DNA of 64,000 nucleotides from Hormiphora californensis (lineage: Eukaryota > Animalia > Ctenophora). A program made the translations under genes and the position numbers. Positions 28,101 through 34,100 of the stretch are shown here, one piece after another. The notes beneath the pieces are model-generated. The model was given only the letters and a program-made list of their open reading frames with translations, was not told where the DNA came from and ran no database searches. Numbering within the stretch: the first letter of the stretch is position 1; each line of letters begins with the position of its first letter. The stretch spans positions 310,001 to 374,000 of the forward strand of contig CM035359.1 of the NCBI GenBank assembly GCA_020137815.1. The letters are read 5' to 3'.

Positions 28101-31100
28101 CTAGAAATGAGAAATGAACATGTTTAACACACACATACCCGGGAAATATCATGTGAAATGCAGGATCGCCCCCAAGGATACAGGACAGAAGTTAGGCCTA
28201 GGGTCTGGTGACAAAATGATGGGTCAGTGGATCACTTTAGTTTAGTGCCATTATAGTGTGAGTTCCACTGTTGAGTGTTTCAATAGTTTCACTCTTGATA
28301 CTTTTGATTTTCTCCAGACCAAGTGGGCTGGGGGCACCGTCCGTGGTGGATGAAGGTGGGTTGCAGCTGATAGCTGCTGTGTGAGGAACACAGCAGCTAT
28401 CAGCTGCAACCCACCCTTTTCTCGGGGTATAAATTTAACATTTTAGTACTATACACATATTATAAAACTGCTATAGGAAGAGGAAAATAGTACATAGGTA
28501 TAATCATAAACATAAATAGCTGCACTAAGAGAAACATGCTACACAATAATCCAAATATAATAAAGCTACGAAGTATTATAACTGTGAAGGATTGAAGTGT
28601 AGCATCGAACCCTCTATTAATTCAACTTCAATTAAAAAACTCAGTTCATAACCCTCCAGTTCCATTTGTCATTTGATCGACACTAAAGTTTCATCTCATT
28701 TGCAAGATCTTGAATTTCCTTGGACCTAGAGGAGGATTTTAATTTAATTCTTGTTTTATCTTGTTTTAAGGGTGGAACAACAACCAATTTATTGGTGGTT
28801 TTGTCGAACTAGAGATTATAATACCTTTTGTTGATGAGCTCTACTGACTGGGTATAGGGGTTGTAATGAGCTGTGAACGGTCGGGGAATCTGCTGAGCCC
28901 ACTCCCTAAAAGTATACATAAAATATTAAATATTAAAAAAGTTGTTTGACAACAATATAAAAGTATACATAAAATATTAAATATTAAAAAAAGTGTTTGC
29001 AACATAGCTGATGTGCCTCCTTAAATTTAATCGCACTAAAAAAGTCTCACGTAAGGTTAGTCTTTACACAAGTGAATTATGAAACTGCACTCACCTAACC
29101 TTCCTCTCTGCCTCCGCGAATGATGGTGCGACAAAGTAAACGGGCTGGACAGTAGCGTCCGAATGTTGGGTAGTCACAATGTTATCAACCTCAAAAGGCA
29201 ACTTCTTGGACGTGGCACTTACACAATTCTCCAGTTCATTAATAGAAGTCAAGCAAGCTGAAGATAAAAAATGTTGGTATGGACAGTTGGACCCTTATTT
29301 ACCCCAACCCTGATTTACCGCAACCCTGATTTACCAGGAGTATAATTTACCGGAAGGATAATTTACCGGACGGATAATTTACCGCAACCCTGATTTACCA
29401 GGAGGATAATTTACCAGGAGGATAATTTACCAGGAGGATAATTTACCCTGACCATTGGGGTATTATTACAACTAGTGGACCCAGGCCATCCTACGGATGG
29501 CAGTTTCCTCTTAGTCCTACCTCTCTATCTCTGTCTCTCTCTGTCTCTCTCTGTCTCTCTCTCTCTGTCTCTCTCTCGGTCCCTCTGTCTCTCTCTGTCT
29601 CTCTCTCTCTGTCTCTTTCTGTCTATTTCTATCTGTCTCTGTCTCTGTCTCTCTCTCTCTCTCTCTCTCTCTCTCTCTCCTCATCTCCCTACTCCTCTCT
29701 CTCTACCTCTCCTCTCTCCTCTCTCCTCCTCTCTCTCTCTCCCTCTCGTCTCTCTCTCTCTCTCTCTCTCTCTTCTCTCTCTCTCTCCTCTCCTCTCGTC
29801 CTCTCTCTCGTCTCTCGCTCTCTCTCTCTCCACTCCTCTCTCATCTCTCTCTCTGCTGCCTCTCTCTCCCTCTCTTCTCTCGTCTCGCTCTCTCTCTCTC
29901 TCTCTCTCTCTCTCTCTCTCTCTCTCTCTCTCTCTCATTTTTTCATTTTTATCTCAATATCTCATCACGCACAGTGGACTCCTGGGTGAAATGTGGGATC
30001 TGATACTCACTGGGATGATCTGATAGTCACTGGGGTGATCTGATCATGGGTGGGGTGATCTGATCCTCTATGGGATGATCTGATCCTCAGTGGGGGGATC
30101 TGATCCTCAGTGGGGTGATCTGATCATGCATGTGGGGTGCTCCTAGCATGCTACTTGTTACGTGATCTGATCTTGATGACGACGATTTAGGGACCACCAA
30201 ACATGCATGGGTGGGATCAAGTTTCGGGTGTTTTTGCATTATATAGTAAGATACAAGTTATATTGTCGCAGATACGCTAACCCACAGTCACAGATTTAGC
30301 AAGATGTTGACCGTCAAAAGCGTATCATCATAGTTTCTCTAGCTCTGGGCTACAGAATTCACTTTACCACTGCATTTGCATGTGTCTGTGCTTTGCACAA
30401 AATATGAAGTATGAACAATTCAATGCACTACCTGCACCGTATGCTTTGATATCTCCATCCTCCAAACATACACCGACCTCAATAGTGAACCAATAAAGGG
30501 TAGCTAACTTCTCGATCCACTCATCGGGGGCACCCAGACTTGCCAAACCAATCTCCTGATGAGGTTAATAACTGGTAAGCAGGAACCGACCGAAACAAGT
30601 AAACAACCAATTAGAACTCGTTATTTAGGGCACGTGACTGGTTATCAGCCAATCAGGGACCAGTATTTCCTGATTCGGTCGGTTCCTGCTGGTAAGTGCA
30701 CCATATTATACCATATTTTCGGAAGGTGCAAGCTACCTAGTCGGTGTGCATTTTTCATGACTGTGGCAGGTGGCTGCAAACTAGCGCCTAAAGGACTAGC
30801 ATATCCTACATATATTTAAATGTCAAAAACTAATCAAATTGGTCGGCTGGATCAAAGATGATCCCCCTTACCCCGTGCCATGACTTAAGTCTACGTGATC
30901 TAACAGGCTACGTGATCTAACAGGCTACGTGATCTAACAGGCTCTAAAGCTCTGGAGACGGAAAGGCAGCTTAAGTTATGCATAGAATGGATAAAGTCGG
31001 CATGTTCATAGTCTCGACGTGGAAAATGAATAACACGGGTTTATTGATTATCAGATAATCAATAAACCCGGGTTTATATGTAGCGGGTCACCCGCTAGGG

Positions 31101-34100
31101 TGATTCGCTACACCATTATATGCAGAAGCATTCATGCTTTTTATAGCGGGCGGGATATATCAGACAAATCTTCACCGCTGATATTTATATAAATATGGCA
31201 GCCTTCACCCTTTATTGCTGATTAAGTTTAGGCTTTGCGAAAGGCTGTACTAAATTTAGCACAGCCTTTAGCTAAACAATTTTACCTGGGAAAAAGCTGC
31301 AAATTCAGGGTCTGCAAAGAGGGGTACGTGGCCGATAATTTCGTGGCAAACGTCCCTGAGAGATGGAGTATAGTGACTGGGAAGTGAGCATTCAACAGTA
31401 GTTTAGTGTCGAAATAAAGCTGGTATTGTGAATCATTTATCATTTATGTAGCGCAAGCCTCCCTCCAGTAGTAAATACTACATAGTAATACAGGTACCTC
31501 AAAATTATTGAGTCACCTGTCAGTACTGTCCGCACAAGTTCAACAAACTTACGGTTCGGGAGAAAACATTTTGTTACCACCGTGTCGAATGTACTGAGTG
31601 CAGTGGAATACCCGGAATGCTAGTCCTGCGAGGAAATCTCGGGAAGAGAGGAGTCCTGCCACTGGCCGAAGAGTGAATCCCGTGCAATCTAGTGTGGAGA
31701 GAGGGGCTGAAAGTTGAAGATTAGGGGCGAGGAAGATCTACTAATGTATTATACTAAAGGGGTTCTTGGTTCCATTGCCCCTGTTAATTCACTTCGTTGG
31801 TGCTCCTTTACAGCAGGAACATATCACGTGCCCGCGAAATCTAACTGATAAAGCCACAGTACAGTGATAAATAATAATAAGTTGAATAAAGTTTGGAGAT
31901 GATGGAGGCTGGTGGGGTAGTACCCGCCAACACTATTGGTGTGAACAATGAAACCAGGAAATTGAATAAAGTTAGTTAATTAACTTACTTACCTTTTAGA
32001 AATTCAGAAATTACTTGCAGCTGTGGAATGTTGTCCTTGTTGTAGTTACAGTTCTCCACCAGTAGTGGCCAGGCTTTCAAGTATTCCTGGAGCAGTAGGA
32101 TAGTGTTACATAGCTGTACCATTTTATAAATAAAAGTTGAGAAGTTGTATTACACAATGTCAAGTACATGGTGGTCTTCCTGGATTAACTACTACCGGGT
32201 CTCTGATATTCATCCATAATCAATACACCAACCGATTTGTCGTGGGACTCGTATCGAAAGTGGGAAGTTCATAATCACCCCTAGATAGTAAAAATCGATT
32301 TGTGGTTCACCTTGCAGGCGTGGGTTTCAAAGAGGGAGCTAAGTTTAGTGAATACAGTTCTCCAGGTTTCCAGTTCATCTGTATTGTACTCCACTGTGGG
32401 AATGGGCTGCCCACTAGAAGGAAGGGAGTTAGCAGGATTTGGGAATGGGCTGCCCACTGTAAGGAAGAAGGAGGGAGTTAGCAGGATTTGGGAATGGGCT
32501 GCCCACTGTAAGGGAGAAGGAGGGAGTTAGCGGGATTTGGGAATGGGCTGCCCACTGTAAGGAAGAATGAGGGAGTTAGCAGGATTTGGGAATGGGCTGC
32601 CCACTGTAAGGGAGAAGGAGGGAGTTAGCGGGATTTGGGAATGGGCTGCCCACTGTAAGGAAGAATGAGGGAGTTAGCAGGATTTGGGAATGGGCTGCCC
32701 ACTGTAAGGGAGAAGGAGGGAGTTAGCGGGATTTGGGAATGGGCTGCCCACTGTAAGGGAGAAGGAGGGAGTTAGCGGGATTTGGGAATGGGCTGCCCAC
32801 TGTAAATGAAGGGAGTTAGCGGGATTTGGGCCGATCTCGTTACCACATGTGTGTGTTAGCAGGTTATGGAGCAATTCCCCCAACCTACCCCTTTATACAA
32901 GGACTATTATAAGAAGAGCACTCTTTTTTAACAGCCGTAAGGAGAAAAACTTCCTCACTCATTATGCGGCTAATAAACCGATCCTTATTCTCAACCACTT
33001 ACTGTTTGTAATTGTAGGCAATATCAGCAAACAACTTTCTCTTCTTCTTATATGTTTCGTCATTAAACCCAGGGTGATCGGAGCGCAGCTCACCCCCGTA
33101 ACTGAATTGGGATCAGAGTGAAATCTCAATTTCAAATCTGGATGAGATCTAGTATGGTCAATAATAAATGTATGGAATTAATAATCATGAAGAATAATTG
33201 TTGGAAAATTTTAACAAAAATTAACTACTCTAGTGTTGTTTGATTTGTTCAGAGCAACATTTATAATATCAACAGATGGAACAAGATGTAACCTTTCAAT
33301 TTGAGATGCAAATCTGTCCAGCTCAGATATTTTGGTGGGGAACCAGGCCACTTCTCCGCCGGTCCCTAAATCTCCTGGAGCTCGTCTAGTTAGGACCTGG
33401 ACATGTTCCTTTCCGTAGGTCGATCTTAGTTCCCCAATGGCCTTCCTAAAAGAGGTTGTGGGCAGGGAACTGGGAAGAAAGCATGATTGAAAATAGAATT
33501 GGATATATAATGTACATAATATGTATGTCAATTTAAAGGGGGGAAAAGAATTATATTCCAGTAAAGTCGGATTTTTTGAAACTGTCACCCCAAAATGACC
33601 ACGCATGTGAAATCTATCAATTTTGACGCGCAAAAACATTCCGCACACGAAAAGGGGGGTGACAGTTTCAAAAAATCCGACTTTAGTTTTATGTCGCTGA
33701 AAACGTCGCACTCACTGGAAATGTTCCTCCTGAATGTCGTTTAGTTCCAAATTAACCAGAAACTTGTATTTTTCAGGTTCGTCAGTAAGGGGTCGGGACT
33801 CAACACGGGTTAATTTGATACCTCTATCCTGGGCATGTATATTTGGGTTTGGTGGGGATTGGTCTAAGAAATGGGGGTTTAATTATAGTGGGGGAACTTT
33901 CCTAGGTTTGCACATTTTGATGACTATATTGCTACCTGGAATGGTCGGAGGGCCTTGACTAGGGCAGATGGTTCATTCTTGACATAGAACACCACAGACA
34001 TCTTCTCGCTACCAACCGAACTGACGTACTAGAAAGTGGAAAAAAGGGTATTATTAGGAAAGTTTAAACTGAAAATCGATCGTTTAGTTGAAGGAGCTCC

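Follow-up and report, generated by a model that had tools for sequence, protein, structure and literature searches.

Background

The described proteins closest to the gene reported here are the phenylalanine hydroxylases (PAH) of ctenophores, known by annotation only from Bolinopsis (XP_063691914.1, P0019 in our protein set) and Mnemiopsis (KAL5272186.1, P0020). The gene lies on the minus strand, at 34028-28683, of a 64,000-nucleotide stretch of the Hormiphora californensis genome (GCA_020137815.1, contig CM035359.1, positions 310,001 to 374,000), which we will call the window; residue numbers are those of PAH. Three further systems bear on it. In bilaterian tyrosine hydroxylase (TH), Asp425, the equivalent of PAH position 379, is listed among the tyrosine-binding residues in the portion of the literature available. 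The bacterial phenylalanine 3-hydroxylases (Phe3H) comprise the enzyme of Streptomyces coeruleorubidus as well as NpsK, SsaX and SfaA. According to the available sections of PMC7027792, bacterial meta- and para-hydroxylases differ at C187 and T202, which the alignment given there equates with Phe331 and Gly346. In the same sections, C187A stays 100% meta, T202A is 67% meta and very slow, and T202G/C187F shifts to para; this 2019 account reports Phe3H as not found in eukaryotes. Toxoplasma gondii AaaH1/2 provides a precedent for a bifunctional Phe/Tyr hydroxylase that makes DOPA outside bilaterian TH. It differs in coming from a protist, in having a signal peptide, and in a preference for Tyr that depends on its N-terminal domain (PMC2653193, in the part consulted).

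Judged from its sequence, the gene belongs to the hydroxylase family and, within it, to the PAH lineage, and not to TH, tryptophan hydroxylase (TPH) or Phe3H. Its product likely hydroxylates ring carbon 3, as suggested by the residues of its pocket. The reading we favour, with a probability of roughly 0.4, is that its main reaction would be the conversion of tyrosine to L-DOPA.

Descent of the gene and its canonical counterpart

The closest full-length proteins are ~72-74% identical to the gene product (Bolinopsis ~73%, Mnemiopsis ~72%, a further cluster ~72%), and all three are canonical in the pocket; other animals follow at 52-57%. In a tree of 22 rows, the five ctenophore rows form a clade with support of 100/100, within which the gene joins the two lobate PAHs (95/89), outside the TPH clade. 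A quick tree of 55 rows agrees, the rows of both trees having been hand-picked from 374 proteins. Grouping the gene with four TH-like rows is rejected by the approximately unbiased (AU) test (p=0.0007), which, together with the nesting in the ctenophore PAH clade, rules out TH orthology. Any TH-like trait is therefore convergent, as a preliminary description of this locus had considered possible. The end branch of the gene measures 0.22, about nine times those of the lobate PAHs (0.024 and 0.026). Besides their clade, the gene and the ctenophore PAHs have in common the ACT and catalytic domains and all iron and pterin residues. The PAHs, in contrast, retain Tyr277, Thr278, Phe331, Gly346, Ser349 and Tyr-Pro-Ile-Thr at 377-380, and in the three canonical proteins compared the last helix is 13 residues longer (40 versus 27, counting from the YNPYT motif).

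A separate canonical PAH copy (Gly346, Ser349, Ile379) exists in the same organism, which settles a point that the preliminary description had raised. Contigs from runs X1, X5 and X7 were compared over 28560-29290, with exons 1-9 outside this range. X1 and X5 represent organism A in two studies, X1 possibly being the source of the assembly, and X7 represents organism B. No contig of X11, a possible RNA run, matched in this range. In both X1 and X5, the intron upstream of the canonical-type contig ends is a different one; these ends give G-C-I-S(-S-I-E-E), and an X5 contig end gives Y-P-I-T-T-I-Q-P-V, both translated by eye. That the two types are alleles was set aside, if not formally, since each of the two samples contains both types and the introns beside them differ. 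In one canonical-type X1 contig (29184-29246) the sequence runs on for 23 letters that fit neither copy, so a third copy, or an allele with an insertion, may be present in sample S1.

The divergent type is itself found in the reads. Exon 10 is matched by X1 and X5 contigs over 29038-29290 and 29143-29290, with one differing letter each; the third base of the Asp379 codon (29157) is unchanged in these contigs, the position of the single differing letter not being displayed. No assembly error is evident at this codon. An X5 contig is identical to 28667-28901, with zero differences, and the early stop is therefore not an assembly slip; a frameshift error as the cause of the short C-terminus is ruled out by the same match.

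Comparable sequences come from relatives. A Pleurobrachia bachei fragment (P0005) shares Val331, with 60 of 64 residues the same over exons 8-9 by an eye count. In run X7, two contigs are of the divergent exon 10 type, both with P384D and one with A380D, T381S and F387Y, letters having been assigned to contigs by depth with 19 of 59 rows unlisted. The extra acidic residues of this loop (D384, D380) resemble some TH-like rows. Goulty et al. (PMC10244343), in the portion available, place two P. bachei hydroxylases and one from Mnemiopsis among the PAHs in their supplementary tree. At >70% identity, the best 120 of 7977 hits comprise three clusters, all canonical, with one each from Bolinopsis and Mnemiopsis. 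No full-length divergent-type protein is among these 120 or among the best 120 of 395 hits in another search. Exon 10 used alone as the query gave no significant match among three candidates; this is a weak search, as lobate PAHs sharing words with the exon were also missed. From this thin sampling, the duplicate looks restricted to the Pleurobrachia lineage.

Substrate pocket and catalytic core

The changes in the gene are concentrated in the pocket that would hold the amino acid. The test set was limited to catalytic-domain sites with at least 90% conservation among 177 PAH-like hits that are also conserved in six canonical ctenophore rows; there are 153 such sites, and the gene differs at 15 of them. 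Five of 11 substrate residues are changed (Y277F, T278S, F331V, G346A and S349T), as against 10 of 142 other sites (Fisher p=0.0015), the 11 residues being those of the list in the accessible part of PMC8003416. When the sites invariant in the six ctenophore rows are used instead, 5 of 11 substrate sites and 29 of 247 others are changed (p=0.008). The remodelled substrate pocket of the preliminary description is thus borne out as exceeding background. None of the nine pterin and iron sites, Glu286 included, is changed. The iron ligands His285, His290 and Glu330, all three of which had been recognised earlier, are intact, as are Glu286, Arg270 and the pterin residues 247, 249, 251, 254, 322 and 325; Pro281, Trp326, Ser350, Glu353 and Tyr138 are kept as well. 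Four of the other ten changes make up the entire 377-380 loop and a fifth is L136E. This loop and the one containing residue 136 border the active site, as described in the available part of PMC12171880; their grouping as pocket-adjacent was made after the change list had been seen.

The canonical pocket set (277, 278, 331, 346, 349 and an aliphatic 379) is changed at six of six positions. Among the 341 readable rows of our protein set (33 of 374 were dropped as unaligned), Thr349 does not occur and a non-aromatic residue at 331 occurs in six. The block 346-352, earlier taken as odd throughout, proves to be so in part: G346A, I348L, S349T and E352N occur in this copy only, whereas Cys347 and Ile351, which like the motif VAPSF are common to the gene and the canonical ctenophore PAHs, are ctenophore-wide. 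The whole block as a copy-specific feature is rejected for this reason. At two positions that mark TPH, the gene keeps Trp326 where TPH has Phe, and has Asp379 where TPH has Ile.

Residues at 379, 331 and 346

Exon 10 (29257-29095) aligns gap-free to rat PAH 348-399, and the catalytic domain shows no insertion or deletion against two vertebrate PAHs across PAH 119-423. The aspartate therefore falls at position 379, the column of TH Asp425, as previously claimed; this register rests on gapless sequence alignment, and a primate TH (P0236) has its Asp in the same column. Of the 308 rows with a readable residue at 379, 22 have Asp. Twenty of these are TH-like at 264 (Gln or Pro), the remaining two being an Oscarella PAH-like protein and one further row. 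The former (P0290, Oscarella lobularis XP_065833573.1) is a divergent sponge sequence that matches this gene in combining His264 with Phe-Ser at 277-278 and an Asp aligned to 379, although its alignment there is less certain. Sixteen diagnostic sites separate PAH from 12 TH-like rows, these rows having been chosen partly on 264 and 379, which are thus diagnostic by construction. At three of these the gene is TH-type (265, 278 and 379), and Bolinopsis PAH at none. The motif FHCTQ, labelled PAH-type at first, is PAH/TPH-type at His264 but derived at Cys265, where 191 of 225 rows in a PAH-rich set of hits have Ser.

A second set of residues, missed by the preliminary description, points in the same direction. 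F331V, within the EVG sequence, and G346A fall on both positions (C187 and T202) that govern meta-regiospecificity in Phe3H, and this match supports ring-3 chemistry while adding meta-tyrosine as a rival product. Like Phe3H, the gene has lost Gly346 as well as the conserved Phe that follows the Glu ligand. It differs from Phe3H in having Val and Ala rather than Cys and Thr (or Ser) at these positions, in Asp rather than Ile at 379, in a eukaryotic PAH scaffold with an ACT domain, and in its independent origin. Gly346 is missing from every one of the six rows in which 331 is non-aromatic, compared with seven of the 335 others. These six have 3-32% of 46 comparable sites changed and are generally divergent, so that general divergence explains the 331/346 pairing only partly. 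The rows themselves (P0298, P0320, P0323, P0351, P0370 and P0376) are eukaryotic and further candidates for altered regiospecificity; among them are a cluster from Stentor, the sea star Acanthaster and a sequence from the rotifer Didymodactylos that lies next to the TH clade.

Proposed reaction and alternatives

The gene is an intact duplicate of ctenophore PAH, its iron and pterin sites kept and its amino-acid pocket rebuilt. In the mechanism we propose, the enzyme would use tetrahydrobiopterin (BH4), O2 and Fe(II) to make the usual ferryl species. With F331V the pocket would lose its aromatic wall at the ring's far end, and G346A would push from the opposite side, in the manner of C187 and T202 in Phe3H, such that carbon 3 would face the iron with room for the para-hydroxyl. 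Asp379, Ser278 and Cys265 repeat TH residues on the substrate-closing loops. The canonical copy would continue the supply of tyrosine, with some meta-tyrosine formed from Phe as a side product, and the shortened last helix may yield a dimer. Conversion of Tyr to DOPA is favoured because it explains both sets of determinants, the TH-type and the Phe3H-type, each of which concerns attack at ring carbon 3.

A number of observations weigh against this reading. The gene is PAH-type at 10 of the 16 diagnostic sites and lies outside the TH clade. The equivalents of TH Gln310 and His323 (PAH 264 and 277) are both missing, with His264 retained and Phe rather than His at 277. In mutagenesis, V379D alone reportedly gives rat PAH little DOPA formation, the best result coming with H264Q. 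Ser137 stands where TH has the Lys partner of its Asp (PMC12171880, in the part at hand). Genuine THs retain Phe331 and Gly346, where the gene has Val and Ala, and Ala346 corresponds to the T202A mutant rather than to wild-type Phe3H. Furthermore, wild-type Phe3H converts <1% of Tyr, and its scaffold is only 24-28% identical to bacterial PAHs (PMC7027792, same sections). Of codon 379 in organism B, the first two bases are missing from the listed letters.

The first alternative, which we regard as unlikely, is that the product is still a phenylalanine 4-hydroxylase, altered since the duplication in its affinity, its regulation or the tissues that use it, with pocket changes that tune it without switching its reaction. 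A catalytic domain ~80% identical to that of lobate PAH, the retention of Arg270, Pro281, His285, Trp326, Ser350, Glu353 and Tyr138, and the conservative nature of Y277F, T278S and S349T are all consistent with such tuning, as is the fact that TH too hydroxylates Phe. The canonical copy already does this job, however, and the changes are enriched in the pocket and extend to residues as rare as a non-aromatic 331 and Thr349.

Unlikely as well, and ranked second, is a phenylalanine 3-hydroxylase that would make meta-tyrosine for a defensive or structural metabolite, in convergence with the Streptomyces enzymes. Change has gone the same way at both Phe3H-defining positions, C187A and T202A, which come nearest among the tested mutants, stay mostly meta, and the joint loss of aromatic 331 and Gly346 in all six rows suggests coupled sites. 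On the other hand, Val and Ala are not the Phe3H residues, T202A is very slow, and the six rows, generally divergent, are without known activity. This reaction also leaves Ser278 unexplained, and Asp379 too, because Phe3H has Ile there.

Less probable again is another aromatic substrate, such as tryptophan or an amino acid that is halogenated or modified in some other way, with the smaller residue at 331 making space for a larger ring. F331V enlarges the pocket, Y377H removes bulk where TPH has Cys, and Arg270 still suits an amino-acid carboxylate, but the TPH-type Phe326 and Ile379 are not present and no candidate substrate was identified. That the gene is a decaying or catalytically dead duplicate with a drifting pocket, as its long branch, shortened C-terminal helix and changes at sites 92-100% conserved could indicate, is very improbable given an open frame of 12 exons with canonical splice sites, the unchanged iron and cofactor sites, the keeping of the exons by organism B though the introns do not align, and the 11 synonymous codon changes versus five non-synonymous codons listed there for exons 10-11 (a partial list with copies mixed).

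Gene structure and surroundings

The hydroxylase gene has 12 exons (Table 1) that form one open frame of 423 residues, and its 11 introns, of 99-1174 nt, are all GT-AG. The preliminary description had placed the hydroxylase at 29095-31688, which is correct as far as it goes but covers only part of the gene; all the motifs that it quoted are found, on the minus strand, among them ESRP of the ACT domain. Three exons pass the cut-off of Biopterin_H (Pfam PF00351). An in-frame ATG at 34001 in exon 1 gives a protein of 414 residues; an acceptor is also present. There may be one more exon on the 5' side, as in the longer Bolinopsis and Mnemiopsis isoforms, although none was identified beyond 34028; a phosphorylated N-terminal regulatory extension is a feature of TH. 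In intron 4, eight additional copies of the exon 5 acceptor, each with the initial bases of that exon, lie upstream at a period of 49 nt and form an apparent array of decoy acceptors. The window holds no second hydroxylase. The gene is nested antisense between exons of an Akt/PKB-like kinase gene, whose span also includes an open reading frame (ORF) with a MAC/perforin match.

Table 1. Exons of the hydroxylase gene and other features of the window (LTR, long terminal repeat)
Feature	Coordinates	Strand	Remarks
Exon 1	33936..34028	-	First recognisable coding exon, ACT domain start; tblastn with ctenophore PAHs begins at 34028
Exon 2	33716..33828	-	ACT domain, ESRP motif
Exon 3	33293..33445	-	Linker and catalytic domain start; L136E
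Exon 4	33003..33101	-	Tyr138 loop
Intron 4 repeats	32415..32801	-	Putative decoy acceptor array
Exon 5	32311..32413	-	
Exon 6	31993..32086	-	
Exon 7	31553..31688	-	Intact pterin loop 247-254; His264, Cys265, Arg270, P275K, Y277F, T278S; Pfam Biopterin_H
Exon 8	31286..31355	-	Iron ligands His285, His290; Glu286
Exon 9	30432..30555	-	Tyr325, Trp326, iron ligand Glu330, F331V (GTC 30477-30475), first base of Ala346 codon
Exon 10	29095..29257	-	G346A, S349T, 377-380 loop His-Ser-Asp-Ala; Asp379 codon GAC 29159-29157
Exon 11	28825..28905	-	
Exon 12	28683..28725	-	Stop codon; shortened C-terminal oligomerisation helix
GDT1 antiporter exon	9206..9499	+	
Tandem single-exon ORFs	12258..13856, 14330..15958	+	Closely similar, 532 and 542 aa; first with BTB/POZ match
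Akt/PKB-like kinase gene	16163..37600	+	PH-domain and kinase motifs at 16163, 17444, 35421, 36854, 37052, 37503
MAC/perforin ORF	19985..20680	-	Domain match
Hydrophobic ORF	23074..23805	-	243 aa; by eye resembles part of a seven-helix receptor; no Pfam match
Immunoglobulin-domain gene	52570..53121	-	
Probable non-LTR retrotransposon	54009..57652	-	886-aa ORF, reverse-transcriptase-like motifs by eye; upstream 338-aa ORF

Implications for ctenophore catechols

Whether ctenophores synthesise catechols is disputed. Genomic surveys, in the portions available, record no TH outside bilaterians. Conversion of tyrosine to L-DOPA by this enzyme must also be set against microchemistry of Pleurobrachia that detected no dopamine, and against reports that ctenophores are without a canonical aromatic amino acid decarboxylase (AADC), both as given in partial sources; these two observations leave room for free or protein-bound DOPA. 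L-DOPA- and TH-immunoreactive cells are described from the polar fields of Pleurobrachia pileus in the accessible part of PMC3877318, and the title of another paper refers to catecholic compounds in colloblast and nerve-net proteins. Antibody staining can be prone to cross-reaction, which counts against the proposal. No description of this copy or its pocket was found in the literature searched, which omits most subscription papers.

We tentatively suggest that in the Pleurobrachia lineage a PAH duplicate may have become a DOPA synthase anew, through the TH aspartate together with pocket changes of the bacterial meta-hydroxylases, and that this enzyme could account for the L-DOPA-immunoreactive polar-field cells and the reported catechols; this wider proposal is more doubtful than the reaction itself. 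The gene is a concrete candidate enzyme, one that a survey based on trees would class with PAH, and it offers a natural experiment on the regiospecificity of hydroxylases. If the suggestion is true, it would be the first ring-3 hydroxylase of an animal to fall outside the TH clade or, should Phe be preferred, the first eukaryotic phenylalanine 3-hydroxylase. As the duplicate appears lineage-restricted, it would show independent invention rather than an ancient catecholamine system.

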